A stretch of DNA of 20,413 bases from Candidatus Woesearchaeota archaeon (GTDB lineage: Archaea; Nanobdellota; Nanobdellia; Pacearchaeales; GW2011-AR1): positions 229,936 through 250,348 of the forward strand of contig CAZUTV010000001.1 in the NCBI GenBank assembly GCA_964623495.1. Direction: 5' to 3'. Shown here piece by piece: positions 3,845-20,347 of this stretch. The stretch's first letter is position 1, and each line of letters opens with the position of its first letter. The position numbers and the translations under genes are program-made. The notes below the pieces were generated by a model. It worked only from the letters and a program-made list of their open reading frames with translations, was not told the origin of the DNA and searched no databases.

Positions 3845-4732
3845 ATGGCAAAATCCCTAATACTTTACATGAAAGATGAAGATGCGGTTAATGCAGATTT
3901 TCAAAGAAATGGAAAGCTTCCAACCCTAGAAAGAGTTATTGAAGCAACCCAAGGAAATGTTGTTCTTTCTGTTGTTCCTGGAAGACTGCCTGGAGTCAAT
4001 CATAATAGACCAATACAAGTAAAACTCTTGCCAGAAGCCGTTGATTATGTTAGAATGTTGGTAGAACACTACAGATTAAATCTCGGGCAGCTGGGAGTTT
4101 ATCACTGCTGCGATAAAGGTTATCAACCAGGAAAAGACAGGCACTCTCATGAAGAATTCTTAAGGCACGGAACCAATGGCGAGGCCTTTGAGTCAGAATT
4201 AAGAGACAAAAAAAGTGCCATACAAACCGCATTTGGAACAAACCCCATGGCCTTTACCTCTCCTCAAAACTGGATGTTTGACGAAAAAGGAAGGCTCAAC
4301 ATCCAAGCATTAGAATACATTTCAAGACAGTTTGATATATTAGTATTACCTCATCCAGGTAGAGTTCTAGGAATCCCATTTTACAAGCTAAAAGAATCAG
4401 GAAGAATAACAACAGGGATGCGCCCCTCAACAAATTCTTCCATCATAGAATTTCAGCACTTGTGTATACTTCCTACAGCAGACTTAACAAAAGGGGATAG
4501 AAAAACAATAGAACAGCATGCAGGACTATATGTCCATTACGATGACCTTCTCAGACAAGGGGAAAAACACGTAAGGACAATTGAAGCAATAGGAAGTCAG
4601 ATTGTCAGCCCAAGCCAACTCCATTATCCTAGAGATTCAGGCACAGTCTATGACAAAATGTACCTATCAAAGCTTAGCGAAGACGTAAGCAGAACGGCTC
4701 TTTTAAGAGGCTTTAAAGAGTTAATCAGATAG
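3845..4732 (+). CDS. hypothetical protein (weak resemblance to polysaccharide-deacetylase/DUF2334-like His-rich motif; not established)
   Basis: 295-aa ORF with a TATA-like ATTTAAATA about 22 nt upstream. Lys-poor and visibly more G+C-rich than its neighbours. Contains the GVYHCCDKGYQPGKDRHSHEEF motif. Confidence 0.6.
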   Translation: MAKSLILYMKDEDAVNADFQRNGKLPTLERVIEATQGNVVLSVVPGRLPGVNHNRPIQVKLLPEAVDYVRMLVEHYRLNLGQLGVYHCCDKGYQPGKDRHSHEEFLRHGTNGEAFESELRDKKSAIQTAFGTNPMAFTSPQNWMFDEKGRLNIQALEYISRQFDILVLPHPGRVLGIPFYKLKESGRITTGMRPSTNSSIIEFQHLCILPTADLTKGDRKTIEQHAGLYVHYDDLLRQGEKHVRTIEAIGSQIVSPSQLHYPRDSGTVYDKMYLSKLSEDVSRTALLRGFKELIR

Positions 4733-4766: not shown

Positions 4767-5201
4767 ATGAATATAATAACAGCCTCAACATTTGAAAAAA
4801 CCAGAAATCTAATAAAATCAGCAAAACATCCAATAATCCTCTCCAGCAATGATGATGAACTTAATCGTAAAATTCTTGAAAAGGAAAAAATAGATCTTCT
4901 TATCATAAATGTGAAAAACAGAAAAGACTATCAAAAGCAAAGAAATTCTGGCTTAGATAATGTAATGGTGAAAGAAGCTGCAAAAAAAGGGATTATTATC
5001 GGAATTAACTTAGAGGAATACCTAAATTCAAATGCAAAAGACAAGATTGAAATTCTAGCAAGAATAAGGCAAAATGTGAGCTTATGCAAGAAACACAAGG
5101 TAAAAATGACATTTATCCCGCAATCAAGAGACCTCCATGGTCTTAAGGCATTAGGAAGTGTTTTGGGAATGCCGACAAATATGCTAACTTTCTTTAACTA
5201 A
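4767..5201 (+). CDS. rnp3: ribonuclease P protein component 3 (Rpp30/Pop2 family), N-terminally short form
   Basis: NRKDYQKQRNSGLDNVMVKEAAKKGIIIGINLEEYLNSNAKDKIEILARIRQNVSLCKKHKVKMTFIPQSRDLHGLKALGSVLGM aligns by eye with the C-terminal two-thirds of Pyrococcus Rpp30 (NRKD..GIDHVLAK....V.LGFSL..LL.SN........L..KYKV....SSA.....R.PRDLISLG.V.GM). TTTATAAA ends 22 nt before the ATG. Confidence 0.6.
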   Translation: MNIITASTFEKTRNLIKSAKHPIILSSNDDELNRKILEKEKIDLLIINVKNRKDYQKQRNSGLDNVMVKEAAKKGIIIGINLEEYLNSNAKDKIEILARIRQNVSLCKKHKVKMTFIPQSRDLHGLKALGSVLGMPTNMLTFFN

Positions 5202-8463: not shown

Positions 8464-8537
8464 GCCTGAGTAGCTCAGTTGGTAAGAGTACGACATTGGT
8501 AATGTCGGGGTCCTGGGTTCAACTCCCAGCTCAGGCT
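8464..8537 (+). tRNA. tRNA-Thr (anticodon GGT)
   Basis: Hand-folded cloverleaf: acceptor GCCTGAG/CTCAGGC, D arm GCTC-AGTTGGTAA-GAGT, anticodon arm CGACA-TTGGTAA-TGTCG, T arm CTGGG-TTCAACT-CCCAG, discriminator T. CCA is not encoded. Confidence 0.9.
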
Positions 8538-9510: not shown

Positions 9511-9542
9511 CATTTCGGAACTAGGAAGAATTATTAAAGAAT

Positions 9543-9615
9543 AGCCCCGTAGTACAGTGGTCAAGTATACAGGACTCTGGATCCTGTGACCTCGGTTCGA
9601 ATCCGAGCGGGGCTA
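9543..9615 (+). tRNA. tRNA-Gln (anticodon CTG)
   Basis: Hand-folded: acceptor AGCCCCG/CGGGGCT (A1:U72, typical of archaeal tRNA-Gln), D arm GTAC-AGTGGTCAA-GTAT, anticodon arm CAGGA-CTCTGGA-TCCTG, T arm CTCGG-TTCGAAT-CCGAG, discriminator A. Confidence 0.9.
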
Positions 9616-9631
9616 TACAAAACAGGTGAAA

Positions 9632-10656: not shown

Positions 10657-10902
10657 ATGGAAAAGGAAATAGGAGAAGTTTCCAGTTATTTCGGCCATGT
10701 CGAAGTTGCTGCAATAAAGCTTAAAGACAAGTTAAAGACCGGAGATACTATCCAAATAAAGGGCCACACAACAGACTTTGAGTTAGAAATAGACGAAATC
10801 CAGATAGACAGAAAACCAGTTAATGAAGCAAAGAAAGGGGATCATATCGGAATAAAGGTTCCTGAAAAAGTAAGGCCAGGAGACAAGGTCTTCTTAGTTT
10901 AA
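10657..10902 (+). CDS. small beta-barrel protein resembling translation-factor domain II (EF-Tu domain 2-like)
   Basis: 81-aa ORF. ...GDTIQIKGHTTDFELEIDEIQIDRKPVNEAKKGDHIGIKVPEKVRPGDKVFLV matches the G-D-x-I..G......V.S.....V.eA..Gd.vGi.l....v..GD.v pattern. CTTATATA ends 22 nt before the ATG. Confidence 0.6.
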   Translation: MEKEIGEVSSYFGHVEVAAIKLKDKLKTGDTIQIKGHTTDFELEIDEIQIDRKPVNEAKKGDHIGIKVPEKVRPGDKVFLV

Positions 10903-10909
10903 AGCAAAG

Positions 10910-10917
10910 CTTATAAA
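10910..10917 (+). promoter_or_regulatory. TATA-like CTTATAAA, about 104 nt upstream of the tRNA-Glu 5' end
   Basis: Best match to the local promoter consensus upstream of tRNA-Glu. It would give an ~80-nt leader. Weaker A/T boxes at 10933-10940 and 10971-10977 are alternatives. Confidence 0.35.
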
Positions 10918-11020
10918 ACAATTTTTCTTGATTTTTATTAGAAGATAAAAGCCTTGGGTCGATAAAACCGATAACAACACTTTTCGTGGGTGGGATGATC
11001 GGGGTCGGCTGGAGGGATGA

Positions 11021-11268
11021 GCCCCTGTCGTATAGAGGCCAAGTATACCACCCTCTCAAATGGCAACGTCAGTTGACGTTTGAGTTAAAGACATCCGGAT
11101 TCAAATGGAGAATCTTTGACTCAATTTCGAAAGAAAACATTCATTTTGTCGAGGTTTAGTCGTTGAGACAATAACCTCTGCCTTCTTTAAGGCAAGACAA
11201 AAACCCACTCAAAATTCTTTGAGTGTTGGAGAACGGTGGTGACCCGAGTTCGAATCTCGGCGGGGGCG
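11021..11268 (+). tRNA. tRNA-Glu (anticodon CTC) interrupted by a 175-nt intron at canonical position 37/38 (exons 11021..11058 and 11234..11268)
   Basis: Hand-folded: acceptor GCCCCTG/CGGGGGC (one G:U pair), D arm GTAT-AGAGGCCAA-GTAT, anticodon stem CCACC (11048-52)/GGTGG (11235-39), spliced loop CTCTCAC, variable TGAC, T arm CCGAG-TTCGAAT-CTCGG, discriminator G. The spliced length is 73 nt. The splice-site helix is CTCT (11053-56) with GGAG (11228-31), flanked by 3-nt bulges. Confidence 0.75.
11059..11233 (+). other. tRNA-Glu intron, 175 nt, ORF-less, multiple hairpins
   Basis: Hairpins found by eye: 11065-70/11075-80 (6 bp); 11082-91/11113-22 (10 bp with one G:U); 11151-56/11173-78 (6 bp); 11179-84/11189-94 (6 bp, loop CTTT); 11206-13/11218-25 (8 bp, loop ATTC). 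The longest ATG-started reading frame is 7 codons. Confidence 0.7.
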
Positions 11269-11907
11269 TTTCCATTCAAACCTCAGATCTTCTCTTTTAT
11301 TGTAAAGAATATTAAAAAGAATGAAGAAAATAACCCCACCAACATTCAAAGATAAATCAAGGATTGTATCAGTATTTCTATCAATTATTAACCCGGCCCC
11401 AAAAAAATGGTCTCCTTGTACCTGATAAACCCCTTGCATAAAAGCTCCGAAAAAATTATCAAAGGCATATTCAACTATCTCCCATCCTACGCTTAAGGAA
11501 ATTGTAGCAAAAGCAGAAAAGAGAATCAAAACGTATTTATCTTTAATCCTCGGCTTAGATAAAAAATAGACAAAAACACAAATAGGAATTGGATTAAAAA
11601 AATGAAGTATCTTATCATAATATTGGGAAGTGCAATAAACCCCACTGCAGCCTCTAGAAACATAATACCACTCAAAGAACAATTCCCCAAAAACATTTAG
11701 CACTGCAATTAACCCCAATAAAAAATGCGCATATTTTGGAATATGGTCAAATTTAAAATAAAAGAATAATAAAACAAATAAAGAACCAAACCAGATGATT
11801 GACCGATACGGGCTGAAAAATAAGTCAAAAACCCCTACAAAAAACAAAAAGAGCCAAATTAGATATGTGAATATCTTAAAAAGATTGTCTGCGTTCTTGC
11901 TAACCAT
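11209..11907 (-). CDS. polytopic membrane protein, unknown family; its 3' end runs antisense into the tRNA-Glu 3' exon
   Basis: 232-aa ORF with about 6 hydrophobic helices. On the minus strand, ATTTAAAA ends 22 nt before the ATG. The last ~20 codons (..RPRRDSNSGHHRSPTLKEF) are the antisense translation of tRNA sequence. Confidence 0.6.
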   Translation of the reverse strand: MVSKNADNLFKIFTYLIWLFLFFVGVFDLFFSPYRSIIWFGSLFVLLFFYFKFDHIPKYAHFLLGLIAVLNVFGELFFEWYYVSRGCSGVYCTSQYYDKILHFFNPIPICVFVYFLSKPRIKDKYVLILFSAFATISLSVGWEIVEYAFDNFFGAFMQGVYQVQGDHFFGAGLIIDRNTDTILDLSLNVGGVIFFILFNILYNKREDLRFEWKRPRRDSNSGHHRSPTLKEF

Positions 11908-13391: not shown

Positions 13392-13994
13392 ATGAAATTA
13401 GAGGTTGAAACAAAAGTAAAGGTGAATAATGTTCCTGAACTAAGAAATAAAATAAAGAAGATAGCAATCCATGAAAAAACAGAATCAAGGGGTGATGATT
13501 ATTTTGCCCTTAAAGGCGAGCGTTATCCACGAAAAGCTTTCAGAATCAGATATGACGGAAAAAAATTTGTAGTCAATTTCAAGAAACATTTAAAAAATCT
13601 TTACAGTGATGGAATTGTTGTGAAAGAAGAGTATGAATTCAGACTAACAGATATAGAACACATCGGAAATTTTCTTGCTTTGCTTGAAGATCTTGGATTT
13701 AAGCCATGGGTGAAAAAGAGAAAACACACAGAAGCTTATCTTTGGAAAAAAGACAAAAGAGTAAACATAGAACTTAATCATGTAGAGCACATAGGTACTT
13801 ACATGGAAATCGAATTCTTAGCAACAAAAAGCCAGGTCCCTGAAGCAAAAAAGAAAATTCTTGAGGTTTTAAAAGAGCTTGAAATTAAAAAATCAGACAT
13901 AGACAATGTAGGATACACTAAAAGACTTTATGAAAAGGGAATCAAAGACAGGAAATATTTTATAACAAAAAAATTCAAGAAGAAAAGTGGATAA
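13392..13994 (+). CDS. CYTH-domain protein (triphosphate tunnel metalloenzyme / CyaB-ThTPase superfamily), paralog 1
   Basis: N-terminal ExExK signature (KLEVETKVKV). Basic residues on alternating strands (RKAFRIRYDGKKFVVNFKK). C-terminal IELNHVEHIGTYMEIEF, equivalent to the h.hD.V..LG.FhEIE motif. An SD-like GAGGA lies 6 nt before the ATG. Confidence 0.75.
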   Translation: MKLEVETKVKVNNVPELRNKIKKIAIHEKTESRGDDYFALKGERYPRKAFRIRYDGKKFVVNFKKHLKNLYSDGIVVKEEYEFRLTDIEHIGNFLALLEDLGFKPWVKKRKHTEAYLWKKDKRVNIELNHVEHIGTYMEIEFLATKSQVPEAKKKILEVLKELEIKKSDIDNVGYTKRLYEKGIKDRKYFITKKFKKKSG

Positions 13995-16928: not shown

Positions 16929-17888
16929 ATGGTTAGCGAAATCTGGACAGAGAAGTACAGACCCAGTAAATTTTCAGAGCTTGTAGGTCAAGAGGACATA
17001 GTCAAAAGAATCGAGTCTTTGACAAATTCATTAAATATACCTCATTTATTGTTCGCAGGACCAGCAGGAACAGGCAAATCAACTCTTGCACTAATTATTG
17101 TAAGAGCTCTCTACGGAGATAATTGGAAGGAAAACTACCTTGAACTTAATGCAAGTGATGAAAGGGGTATAAATGTAGTTAGAGAAAAAGTAAAGACTTT
17201 TGCAAGAACAAAATCTCTTGGAAATGTCCCTTTTAAGGTAATCTTTTTAGATGAAGCAGATGCCTTAACTCCAGAAGCTCAGCAAGCCCTAAGACGTACA
17301 ATGGAAAACTACTCTACCACTTGTAGGTTCATACTTTCCTGCAACTACTCCAGCAAAATTATTGATCCAATCCAATCCAGATGTGCAATCTTCCGTTTCA
17401 AACTTCTAGAAAAGAGGGACATAGACAAAGTAATAGAAAAAATAACAGTAGGGGAAAACCTTACAATACAACAAGCTGCAAAAGAGATTATCTATGAAGG
17501 AAGCGAGGGAGACTGCAGAAAATCAATTAACATCCTTCAGTCTACGGCCTCAATATCGCCAAATATAACGACAGATTTAGTATCAACAATAATCTCAAAT
17601 GCAAAGCCAAAAGACATTAGGGTTGTCTTAGATTATGCTTTATCTGGAGATTTCCAGAAATCAAGAGAAAAACTACTAGACGTCATGTTAAAAGAAAGTA
17701 TTTCTGGCCAAGACGTAATAAAAGCAATTCAAAAAGAAGTCTGGAATCTTCCAATAGAACCAGAAATAAAAGTAAAACTAACAGAAAAAACTGGAGAAGT
17801 AGAATTCAGAATAGTTGAGGGAAGTGACCCATTTATACAACTACAGTCCCTATTAGCAAGTTTTGTGCTTGCTGGTTTGGCCAAGTAA
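16929..17888 (+). CDS. rfcS: replication factor C small subunit
   Basis: WTEKYRP..F.E.VGQE, Walker A GPAGTGKST, DEAD (Walker B), SRC motif (QSRCAIFRF), 319 aa. GGAGG lies 6 nt before the ATG. Confidence 0.95.
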   Translation: MVSEIWTEKYRPSKFSELVGQEDIVKRIESLTNSLNIPHLLFAGPAGTGKSTLALIIVRALYGDNWKENYLELNASDERGINVVREKVKTFARTKSLGNVPFKVIFLDEADALTPEAQQALRRTMENYSTTCRFILSCNYSSKIIDPIQSRCAIFRFKLLEKRDIDKVIEKITVGENLTIQQAAKEIIYEGSEGDCRKSINILQSTASISPNITTDLVSTIISNAKPKDIRVVLDYALSGDFQKSREKLLDVMLKESISGQDVIKAIQKEVWNLPIEPEIKVKLTEKTGEVEFRIVEGSDPFIQLQSLLASFVLAGLAK

Positions 17889-17897
17889 ATTACCAAA

Positions 17898-18092
17898 ATG
17901 AGCTTGGATGGTTTTGAAGAAAGCAAGATAAAAACACATTTATACAACGAATTTTATGAGGCCAATAAAGACTTATTTAGAAAAAATCGCCAAGAGTTCA
18001 TGCGCCAGCAAAGAGTTTATGTTGAAAAAGGATTCATGGATATTAAATATAATTTAAAAAAAGATGGAGAGCAACATAGAAGTAGAGATTAG
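17898..18092 (+). CDS. hypothetical 64-aa protein between rfcS and CYTH paralog 2
   Basis: ORF starts 9 nt after the rfcS stop and overlaps the next ORF by 29 nt. Charged, helical-looking. No family recognised; it could be non-coding. Confidence 0.35.
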   Translation: MSLDGFEESKIKTHLYNEFYEANKDLFRKNRQEFMRQQRVYVEKGFMDIKYNLKKDGEQHRSRD

Positions 18093-18624
18093 GAGTTTCA
18101 TAACAGAAGACCAGTATAAGACCCTAGTAAAATTCTTTGAGGAAAACTCAATAAAAGTAAAAGATGATTTTCAAGAAACACACTACTTTAACTGCAAAGA
18201 AGACTTAAGAATTCAGAAAAATAGTTCTGGTGCAAAAGTTTGGATGAAAAAAGGAAAAATCCACGACGATTGGAGGGAAGAAATAGAGATAAAAATCCCA
18301 AGAGACGATTTTGAAAAGATGAAATCAATATTCAATGGGTTGGGCATGGAAACAGAGATAAAATGGCTCAGAGATAGAAAACAATTTGACTGGAACGGAA
18401 TTAAAGTTTGTTTAGATTTCACGCAAGGCTATGGGCATATAATAGAACTTGAAAAAATAACTTCTCCTGAAGAAAAAGAAAGGGTACTAACAGAACTGCA
18501 AGAAAAATTACAGGAGTTAGACATAAAACTAAGCCCAAAAGAAGAATTCGATAAAAAATTTAGCCATTATAAAGAAAACTGGAGAGAATTAACAGAAGAT
18601 GATAAAAGATCAAAATTGGGTTGA
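18064..18624 (+). CDS. CYTH-domain protein, paralog 2
   Basis: N-terminal IEVEIRSF (ExExK/R), LRIQK, KVWMKKGK, WREEIEIKI, and a C-terminal KVCLDFTQGYGHIIELE motif. Overlaps the rfcL start by 26 nt. Confidence 0.7.
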   Translation: MESNIEVEIRSFITEDQYKTLVKFFEENSIKVKDDFQETHYFNCKEDLRIQKNSSGAKVWMKKGKIHDDWREEIEIKIPRDDFEKMKSIFNGLGMETEIKWLRDRKQFDWNGIKVCLDFTQGYGHIIELEKITSPEEKERVLTELQEKLQELDIKLSPKEEFDKKFSHYKENWRELTEDDKRSKLG

Positions 18625-19831: not shown

Positions 19832-20347
19832 ATGGGGCATTTAAATGTTGAAATAAAAGCAAGATGTCAAAACCAAAATTCTATTCGAGAAATTCTAAAA
19901 TCAAAACAGGCAGATTTTAAAGGAATTGACCACCAAATTGACACCTATTTTAAAGTTAGTAAAGGAAGATTAAAATTAAGAGAAGGAAATATTGAAAATT
20001 CACTAATATTTTATGAAAGAGAAAATAAAGAAGGACCAAAACAATCTAATGTTATTTTATTCAAAACAGCTAAAGATTCGTCTCTAAAAGAAATTCTAAC
20101 AAAACTATTTGAAATACTAATAATTGTTGATAAAAAAAGGGAAATTTACTTCATTAGCAATGTAAAATTTCATATAGATGAAGTAAAAGGATTAGGAGAT
20201 TTTATAGAGATTGAAGCTATTGATGAACATGGGAATATTGGAAAAGAAAAATTACAAGAGCAATGTCAAGAGTATATTAGATTATTCCAAATAAATAATG
20301 AAGATTTAATCTCTCAATCTTATAGTGACTTGTTGTTAAAGAACTGA
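19832..20347 (+). CDS. CYTH-domain protein, class IV adenylyl cyclase (CyaB)-like, paralog 3
   Basis: Its ATG immediately follows the rfcL TAA. Contains NVEIKAR (ExExK), QIDTYF, GRLKLRE, KKREIY and FHIDEVKGLGDFIEIEA, close to the canonical CyaB/CYTH motif set. Confidence 0.8.
   Translation: MGHLNVEIKARCQNQNSIREILKSKQADFKGIDHQIDTYFKVSKGRLKLREGNIENSLIFYERENKEGPKQSNVILFKTAKDSSLKEILTKLFEILIIVDKKREIYFISNVKFHIDEVKGLGDFIEIEAIDEHGNIGKEKLQEQCQEYIRLFQINNEDLISQSYSDLLLKN

Follow-up and report, generated by a model that had tools for sequence, protein, structure and literature searches.

A tRNA-Glu(CUC) intron family with a conserved three-way-junction core in Woesearchaeota- and Pacearchaeota-type archaea: a candidate structured RNA nested in a tRNA gene

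Introduction

Archaeal tRNA introns are usually seen as short spacers with lengths of 11–129 nt and medians of mostly 12–25 nt, except for tRNA-Trp (2014 review, PMC4090602). Only one exception has been accepted, namely the box C/D RNA of the tRNA-Trp(CCA) intron of Euryarchaeota, which the same review calls the 'unique example' of a functional unit inside a tRNA intron. Here, the intron of a tRNA-Glu(CUC) gene is described that lies on a stretch of 20,413 nt from a Candidatus Woesearchaeota archaeon (assembly GCA_964623495.1, contig CAZUTV010000001.1). The whole stretch is referred to as the window and its positions are used throughout. The intron contains a three-way-junction domain that is conserved in related archaea and, judged from sequence comparison, it is a candidate for a second case in which a structured RNA resides within an archaeal tRNA intron. 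If this is true, a second, unrelated covarying domain is tied to one tRNA across a DPANN clade, and RNAs nested in introns would be a recurring solution.

The box C/D RNA of tRNA-Trp introns is the closest known system. In both cases, a bulge-helix-bulge (BHB) intron at position 37/38 is far longer than ordinary ones, and a conserved structured RNA that is tied to one tRNA across a large clade accounts for the additional length. In contrast to the tRNA-Trp intron, neither C, D, C' or D' boxes nor a K-turn or guide complementarity were found in the tRNA-Glu intron; its host is tRNA-Glu(CUC) of DPANN archaea and its fold is a three-way junction. With ordinary archaeal BHB introns it shares the 37/38 site, the 4-bp helix with two 3-nt bulges and exons that form a normal cloverleaf, but it is 175 nt long in the window and 57–181 nt in the family, its outer helix is nearly missing and its interior is conserved and covarying. 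Bacterial tRNA genes with group I introns likewise carry an insert of at least 100 nt in the anticodon loop; unlike these, the insert described here has no group I core, is too short, contains a BHB and resides in an archaeal host.

The same tRNA family is interrupted in the related lineage of Nanoarchaeum equitans, where two 5' tRNA-Glu halves share one 3' half and are joined via a relaxed BHB (PMC4033280). There, the halves pair via G+C-rich leader and trailer sequences, whereas here one gene is interrupted by an intron with a three-way junction. The break in the N. equitans tRNA-Glu was reportedly located after position 37 by Randau and co-workers in 2005. From the sequences, it is plausible that a long and loosely closed 37/38 intron represents the precursor state of the split tRNA-Glu of Nanoarchaeum, i.e. 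a possible stepping stone from intron-containing to split genes.

Structure of the split tRNA-Glu(CUC) gene

The original prediction, which was made from the bare sequence, had assembled two half-tRNAs lying 175 nt apart into a complete 73-nt tRNA-Glu(CUC). ARAGORN confirmed this with the intron in place as well as after splicing. With introns allowed (-i0,400), the program placed tRNA-Glu(ctc) at [11021,11268] and assigned it an intron of 175 nt, and the 73-nt product spliced by hand was also called as tRNA-Glu(ctc) with a normal cloverleaf. The gene consists of the following parts:

11021..11058, plus strand: 5' exon of tRNA-Glu(CUC), tRNA positions 1–37, with the anticodon CTC at 11055–11057 (ARAGORN; exon kept in about 100 contigs)
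11059..11233, plus strand: BHB (protein-spliced) intron of 175 nt at the canonical 37/38 site (ARAGORN, fold, family comparison)
11234..11268, plus strand: 3' exon of tRNA-Glu(CUC), tRNA positions 38–73 (ARAGORN)

The spliced cloverleaf has a 7-bp acceptor stem including one U-G pair, a D stem GUAU/GUAU including two G-U pairs, an anticodon stem CCACC/GGUGG and the T loop UUCGAAU. Acceptor stem, perfect 5-bp anticodon stem and T loop are thus as they had been described. The CCA end is not encoded; G11268 is followed by TTTCC.

The proposed control with tRNA scanners gave a divided result. While ARAGORN accepted the split gene when introns were allowed, ARAGORN in default mode (no -i) and the Rfam tRNA model only found tRNA-Thr(GGU) at 8464–8537 and tRNA-Gln(CUG) at 9542–9616 in the window. 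The default tools miss tRNA-Glu(CUC) because the insert is too long; relatives with introns of 77–115 nt are detected by the Rfam tRNA model. Such misses may explain part of the 'missing' tRNAs that were reported for DPANN genomes (PMC5829648).

A gene that is not reported by default scanners could also be a tRNA pseudogene that was disrupted by an insertion. However, both halves, the BHB and the insert site are kept in about 100 contigs, and the acceptor stem shows compensatory, paired substitutions across the relatives (GCCCCUG/CGGGGGC, GCCCCGA/UCGGGGC, GCUCCAA/UUGGAGC and GCCUCCA/UGGAGGC). Moreover, the neighbouring tRNA genes accompany tRNA-Glu(CUC) across the clade: tRNA-Gln(CUG) is present in 28 and tRNA-Thr(GGU) in 16 of the first 62 loci, those of the genome scan described below. 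The paired changes, the recurring neighbours and the conserved halves, BHB and insert site together argue for a genuine, maintained tRNA-Glu(CUC) gene, and the probability of a disrupted pseudogene is practically negligible.

The BHB motif and the intron fold

The BHB element was located by sequence at the positions that had been drawn by hand, and the interruption at the canonical 37/38 site holds. Its two sides are:

11053..11059, plus strand: 5' side of the BHB with the helix strand CUCU at 11053–11056 and the bulge C-A-A at 11057–11059 (from sequence; predicted cut between 11058 and 11059)
11228..11234, plus strand: 3' side of the BHB with the helix strand GGAG at 11228–11231 and the bulge A-A-C at 11232–11234 (from sequence; predicted cut between 11233 and 11234)

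The central H helix is formed by the pairs C11053-G11231, U11054-A11230, C11055-G11229 and U11056-G11228. It is flanked by the perfect 5-bp anticodon stem as helix h and by an outer helix h' of only 1 bp in the window (A11060-U11227), which makes it a relaxed BHB as proposed. The minimum free energy (MFE) fold prefers an alternative register that is one base off. Only the canonical register suits all members of the intron family, because some of them carry U instead of the first bulge A.

Among the 66 distinct introns of the family, the central helix is complete (4/4 bp) in all 66 and its RGRG strand reads GGAG, AGAG or AGGG in every case. The 5' bulge is CAA in 59/66 and the 3' bulge AAC in 51/66 introns. 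The outer helix h' comprises 0–3 bp in 59/66, so that the weak outer helix is a family trait.

The predicted hairpins are real: on its own, the intron reaches -55.8 kcal/mol (z = -4.68), and none of 200 shuffled sequences was as stable. A z-score of -6.76 was obtained for the whole pre-tRNA. In the original prediction, the intron had no reading frame longer than 7 codons; this is correct for open reading frames (ORFs) started by ATG (at most 7 codons), while stop-free stretches reach up to 38 codons, which does not affect the argument. A motif search detected neither C nor D boxes in the window intron. The absence of such boxes and of a useful ORF is in agreement with the original prediction.

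The intron family

Relatives of the gene were collected in two scans. A species-representative genome collection was searched with a 26-nt pattern of the 3' exon and yielded 62 loci (individual loci are designated by L and a number). About 40 of these hold tRNA-Glu(CUC), and the remainder are tRNA-Gly or tRNA-Pro genes sharing the same arm. ARAGORN placed an intron next to the anticodon in 36 of 39 tRNA-Glu(CUC) genes; the three intron-less genes have clearly divergent 5' halves. The metagenome-assembled genomes (MAGs) concerned are labelled Woesearchaeota, Pacearchaeota, Nanoarchaeota or simply 'archaeon'. A metagenome scan with a 25-nt pattern of the 5' exon added 40 further contigs. A complete intron of 68–181 nt was present in 39 of them, and the remaining one (L083) ends at the contig edge inside the intron.

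Pooled, the scans gave 66 distinct introns of 57–181 nt (median 102.5) from about 100 contigs. The intron is a clade-wide feature, and 175 nt is unexceptional within the clade. The great length, which had been described as unusual for the window gene, is therefore a trait of the family, with relatives reaching 178 and 181 nt.

The tRNA exons closest to those of the window come from MAGs labelled Pacearchaeota (L053, L054). An identical stretch was found on the JGI metagenome contig Ga0394875_0006047 (L001), the only match of a neighbouring protein of 81 amino acids; for the neighbouring GlgC-like protein, no contig was recorded. Two scans of viral contigs with loose patterns yielded unrelated DNA, including L104, a chance match in coding sequence, and L107, and 60 of these loci were used as the negative control for model R1 (see below).

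The conserved three-way-junction core

The part of the intron interior that is conserved across the clade is a core of 59 nt in the window, which folds into a three-way junction:

11144..11202, plus strand: conserved three-way-junction core, 59 nt (MFE fold, model R2, covariation; same architecture in type A relatives)
11144–11150 / 11196–11202, plus strand: closing helix P0 of the core
11151–11156 / 11173–11178, plus strand: helix P1 of the core
11159–11161 / 11167–11169, plus strand: helix P1b of the core with the pentaloop GUUGA at 11162–11166
11179–11184 / 11189–11194, plus strand: helix P2 of the core with the loop CUUU at 11185–11188
11195, plus strand: junction A of the core

Separate MFE folds of most introns yielded the same three-way junction. 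In its general layout, P0 is followed by P1, a small A-rich internal loop, P1b with 3–6 bp and a pentaloop, a short P2 and usually one junction A. The junction strands comprise 0–3 nt, the internal loops 2–4 nt and the whole core 48–65 nt across the family. A grammar parser found the junction in 61 of the 66 distinct introns; three of these parses were at a wrong site. The loop and pair counts given below refer to 58 introns. The junction is missing only from the two shortest introns, namely L060 with 57 nt, which is A/U-rich and unstructured, and L050 with 63 nt, which keeps a remnant of it.

Two types of the core were distinguished. Type A follows the scheme GAGGU-GAUC...UCUC-GAUGA-GAGA...GRUC-UA-GCAU-CUCA-AUGC-A-ACCUC, while type B, to which the window belongs, reads NNNN-GARGUU-UA-GUC-GWUGA-GAY-AAU-AACYUC-A-GYCCU-CUU-AGGRC-A-NNNN. 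L054, L070, L089 and L081 are intermediates between the two. The pentaloop L1 is G-N-N-G-A in 58/58 introns (GAUGA in 43, GUUGA in 7, GAGGA in 5, GGUGA in 2 and GAAGA in 1). The first two pairs of P1 are GA/UC in 53/58, and P1b is closed by C-G in 42 and by U-A in 16 introns. On inspection, this closing pair did not covary with the sequence of the P2 loop L2, and a pairing between the loops L1 and L2 was not indicated. The distance from the core to the splice sites is variable with 0–85 nt on the 5' side and 4–89 nt on the 3' side.

Covariation supports the fold in both types. In a plain MAFFT alignment of type A (A2, 24 sequences), 94.1% of the positions concerned were paired compared with 36–49% when the partners were slid by 1–3 columns. 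Changes on both sides occurred in 7/17 pairs, and the covariation score was reached by 0/500 shuffles. RNAalifold predicted P1, P1b and P2 for type A when no structure was supplied. For type B, 85.2% pairing was found in alignment A5 (15 sequences) versus 33–49% in slid controls and 16/18 pairs were compensatory, although A5 was realigned to model R2 and is thus biased towards the fold. In the unfitted MAFFT alignment A3, RNAalifold still gave P1 and P1b, and 7/9 pairs were compensatory. The covariation check that had been suggested for the intron hairpins is therefore passed by the junction core, which is built from the central two of the predicted hairpins and a closing helix. Of the other hairpins, the 10-bp one is shared with three close relatives only, and the one at the 5' side and the 8-bp one at the 3' side are lineage-specific.

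As MAFFT cannot align both types together, separate covariance models were used for type A (R1) and type B (R2). In approx. 0.9 Mb of related loci plus the window, strong matches of R1 and R2 (50–81 bits) were exclusively located inside tRNA-Glu(CUC) introns. R1 had no match on 60 unrelated control loci (approx. 0.55 Mb). With filters off, R2 hit a single site in the window at 11147–11198 with 58.5 bits (E = 5e-14), followed by a runner-up with 9.9 bits. R1 scored 36–43 bits on the intermediates L054, L070 and L089. Weak cross-type matches were obtained at the same place, namely 15–17 bits for R1 on L022, L033 and L061 and 21–23 bits for R2 on L006 and L031. Together with the matches on the intermediates, these cross-matches link types A and B.

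A side observation concerns the type A introns (e.g. 4664–4731 of L038 and 1903–1968 of L093). Their most conserved block, GAGGUGAUC, is the exact complement of GAUCACCUC, the 3' tail of the 16S rRNA. In the type A fold, GAGGUGAUC pairs with GAUC...ACCUC, a copy of the tail that is split by the hairpin P2, and most type A members have AUG, GUG or UUG in the pentaloop, 8 nt past GAGGUGAUC. A reading of the type A core as a Shine-Dalgarno sequence with a start codon was rejected: type B cores, that of the window among them, do not contain the block, a conserved mini-ORF is lacking and the window genes are mostly leaderless (see below).

Comparison with known RNA classes

The intron could also belong to a known class of functional introns, namely those with guide RNAs of the box C/D (as in tRNA-Trp introns) or H/ACA kind, or the self-splicing group I introns known from bacterial tRNA anticodon loops. 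Its length and its position next to the anticodon would fit, and GAUGA in the conserved loop is similar to a portion of a C box. However, a search of Rfam 15 with the window intron and one type A intron gave chance-level matches only (E ≥ 1.7, far below the thresholds), so that no family reached its threshold or E < 1 there. In 18 related loci, tRNA was the only Rfam family that was detected. RUGAUGA and CUGA occur together in 2/74 family introns, which is the level expected by chance, and not in the window. The 5-nt GA-N-GA loop is too short for a K-turn or K-loop. For an H/ACA RNA, a three-way junction is present instead of the required fold, no guide pocket flanked by ACA was seen on inspection and Rfam gave no match. 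Intron_gpI had no match even at E ≤ 10 on 10900–11400, lengths of 57–181 nt are below the size of a group I core, and a BHB is present. Membership in one of these known classes is thus highly improbable.

A hammerhead-type core was also considered and rejected: its conserved nucleotides would be expected in the junction, while those of the intron are in the terminal loops. Moreover, the junction strands are too short for such a core or for a ligand pocket. Taken together, the guide, self-splicing and pseudogene readings account for a very small part of the probability. In the full-text literature, no description of this tRNA-Glu intron family was found; coverage of that search was incomplete, hence it is no proof of novelty.

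Accessory hairpins and turnover of intron parts

Around the core, the window intron contains four further hairpins:

11065..11080, plus strand: H1, 6 bp, lineage-specific (MFE fold; no counterpart in relatives)
11081..11123, plus strand: H2, 11-bp stem and inner 4-bp stem, apical loop with UUCAAAU (MFE fold; reported as a 10-bp stem in the original prediction)
11125..11136, plus strand: H3, 4 bp, no evidence of conservation (MFE fold only)
11206..11225, plus strand: H4, 8 bp, CACUCAAA/UUUGAGUG (MFE fold; without sequence counterpart)

About 40/46 nt of H2 are common to the metagenome and MAG introns of L090, L093 and L102, and the hairpin is absent from all other loci. One pair of its stem is altered on both sides (AAAGA/UCUUU versus AGAGA/UCUCU). 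H2 sits beside a type B core in the window and beside a type A core in the three relatives. At the position of H4, hairpins of unrelated sequence are found in L004, L018, L021, L028, L032, L046, L052, L073 and others. The intron architecture is thus BHB, optional hairpins, junction core, optional hairpins and BHB.

The apex of H2 (11094–11109) shows UUCAAAU, a heptamer typical of tRNA T loops; the T loop of the gene itself is UUCGAAU. Going by this likeness, the apex may represent a tertiary module of the T-loop type or what is left of a T arm.

Identical exons were found with different introns. One exon pair occurs with a type B intron of 121 nt and with a type A intron of 178 nt, while a second pair occurs with type A introns of 68–136 nt and with a type B intron of 98 nt. 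These pairs and the distribution of H2 hint at an exchange or a fast turnover of intron parts, as far as can be judged from the gene sequences. Such a pattern would also suit an intron without a function of its own that is kept because it is difficult to lose or because mobile elements rarely integrate into an interrupted tRNA gene. The latter idea was put forward by Randau and Soll (2008; cited in PMC4033280). The core would then be a stable fold protecting the cloverleaf or the relic of a mobile intron. Differing subtypes and lengths between identical exon pairs, as well as the occurrence of H2 with both core types, agree with this explanation. However, mere filler would not hold an invariant pentaloop, a GA/UC base and a three-helix layout while the paired positions vary, and the core-less intron of L060 is short and A/U-rich. 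A functionless intron is therefore regarded as improbable.

Predicted processing and upstream region

In line with established archaeal tRNA processing, transcription of the gene would start at a promoter about 100 nt upstream, and RNase P would remove the leader. The splicing endonuclease would cut in both 3-nt bulges, between 11058 and 11059 and between 11233 and 11234. An RtcB-type ligase would then join the exons to the 73-nt tRNA and, by analogy, circularise the intron. CCA would be added afterwards, since it is not encoded. The upstream elements are:

10906..10919, plus strand: putative archaeal promoter, similar to a B recognition element and TATA box (BRE/TATA), with the sequence AAAGCTTATAAAAC; the tRNA begins about 100 nt further downstream (inferred assignment)
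10940..11020 (start approximate), plus strand: unusually long, lineage-specific 5' leader with a G+C-rich tail at 10985–11020 (comparison of upstream regions)

The AAGCTTATAAAA box also occurs in L053, L013, L055 and L071, 35–45 nt upstream of the tRNA. In the majority of the remaining relatives, (A)AAnTTTATAAA is located roughly between -25 and -35. The fold of 10930–11060 was no better than that of shuffled sequences (z = -0.28), and a structured 5' leader was thus not supported. The G+C-rich stretch at 10985–11020 contains near-copies of the 3' acceptor strand. The gene for the RNase P p30 subunit is located in the window at 4767–5201.

Possible function of the junction domain

By analogy with the box C/D unit, the junction domain may be a compact unit that acts on or together with its own host pre-tRNA. 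Its invariant elements, i.e. the GNNGA pentaloop, which is read as a GNRA-like loop, the basal G-C and A-U pairs of P1 and the junction A, would form a compact fold or a surface recognised by a protein. The domain would close the interior of a long, A/U-rich intron that has nearly no outer BHB helix, and it may bring a factor for maturation or modification to tRNA-Glu(CUC), similar to the way in which the box C/D unit of tRNA-Trp introns serves its host tRNA. This host-directed role is proposed because the domain is strictly tied to one tRNA, because the outer helix is nearly absent and because of the tRNA-Trp precedent; we estimate its chances as about even.

Several findings weigh against a host-directed role. 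L060 and L050 keep the BHB without the junction, so that splicing does not strictly depend on the domain. The variable spacing between core and splice sites suits a geometry-dependent role poorly, and the conservation of the loops exceeds the needs of a simple clamp. For type B, no complementarity to the exons was found. Finally, a Pfam scan of the 20 larger window ORFs revealed neither a splicing endonuclease nor an RtcB ligase gene.

The members without the domain, the free spacing and the over-conserved loops make an excised RNA acting in trans a serious rival. In this case, tRNA splicing would produce a free-standing noncoding RNA that is circular and resistant to exonucleases and that acts on a target other than tRNA-Glu, like metazoan tRNA intronic circular RNAs (tricRNAs). 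The tRNA ligase turns excised tRNA introns into circles, which can be stable (PMC4536317). These RNAs are eukaryotic, and the comparison is made here from gene sequence. We know of no junction fold that is shared among tricRNAs.

The sequence and the structure of the domain are both under purifying selection, which a trans-acting RNA would explain, and the domain is dispensable for the BHB in L050 and L060 and free in its spacing to the splice sites. Wherever it is present, the intron has at least 68 nt, versus medians of 12–25 nt for ordinary archaeal tRNA introns (PMC4090602). The complementarity of the type A block to the 16S rRNA tail, with the start-codon-like loop 8 nt further on, would also be compatible with a target in trans. 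On the other hand, the domain was never found outside the tRNA-Glu(CUC) intron in the searched loci, which points to a link with the host and gives no sign of an independent gene, and neither the window nor the other type B introns have the Shine-Dalgarno-like block, with no mini-ORF being conserved. All in all, a trans-acting RNA is considered somewhat unlikely.

Carried further, the junction would represent a new functional RNA class that is made by tRNA splicing, persists as a stable circle and acts in trans, possibly with the translation apparatus or a protein partner, and the family may be an intermediate towards the split tRNA-Glu of Nanoarchaeum. From the sequence comparison, this extended proposal is rather doubtful. 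The hosts cannot be grown, but a domain of 50–60 nt is small enough for probing, pull-downs and searches for circular RNAs in metatranscriptomes.

Further tRNA inserts and other genes of the window

In some relatives, the neighbouring tRNA-Gln(CUG) has an intron of its own with 53–63 nt (L038 5167–5297, L052 5486–5621, L054 2297–2422 and L060 6258–6386). These introns are alike, with GUUCG-UGAGG, a hairpin, CAAUA and CGAAC, and by this likeness they may form a second tRNA-specific intron family. One of the genes was miscalled as tRNA-Pyl by ARAGORN. The tRNA-Gln of the window (9542–9616) is intron-less. A second insert of approx. 35 nt was seen in the D loop of tRNA-Glu(CUC) in L040 (~194–389), L046 (~4197–4425) and L049 (~2252–2447). 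These genes also have the 37/38 intron with the junction and were mislabelled as tRNA-Pro or tRNA-Ser by ARAGORN.

On the minus strand, an ORF of 232 amino acids at 11209–11907 resembles a membrane protein with a weak match to DUF2238 (E = 3e-4). It overlaps the 3' exon as well as 25 intron nucleotides, and JGI did not annotate it on the identical contig. Read-through of the tRNA gene probably accounts for its last ~20 codons.

The proteins encoded in the window are of archaeal type and the G+C content is 32–40%. Besides RNase P p30, the window encodes the alpha and beta subunits of PheRS, two RFC subunits, an acetyl-CoA synthetase and a sugar-nucleotidyl transferase. A 200-amino-acid ORF at 13392–13994 had no match in Pfam. 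A TATA-like box (TTTATAAA or CTTATAAA) lies ~25 nt before many starts (e.g. 762, 2108, 4767 and 10657), where no Shine-Dalgarno sequence is visible. This spacing together with the lack of Shine-Dalgarno sequences suggests that the mRNAs of the window are mostly leaderless. A clear GGAGG was seen only before the gene of the small RFC subunit at 16929. CYTH domains are present in the ORFs at 18064–18624 and 19832–20347.

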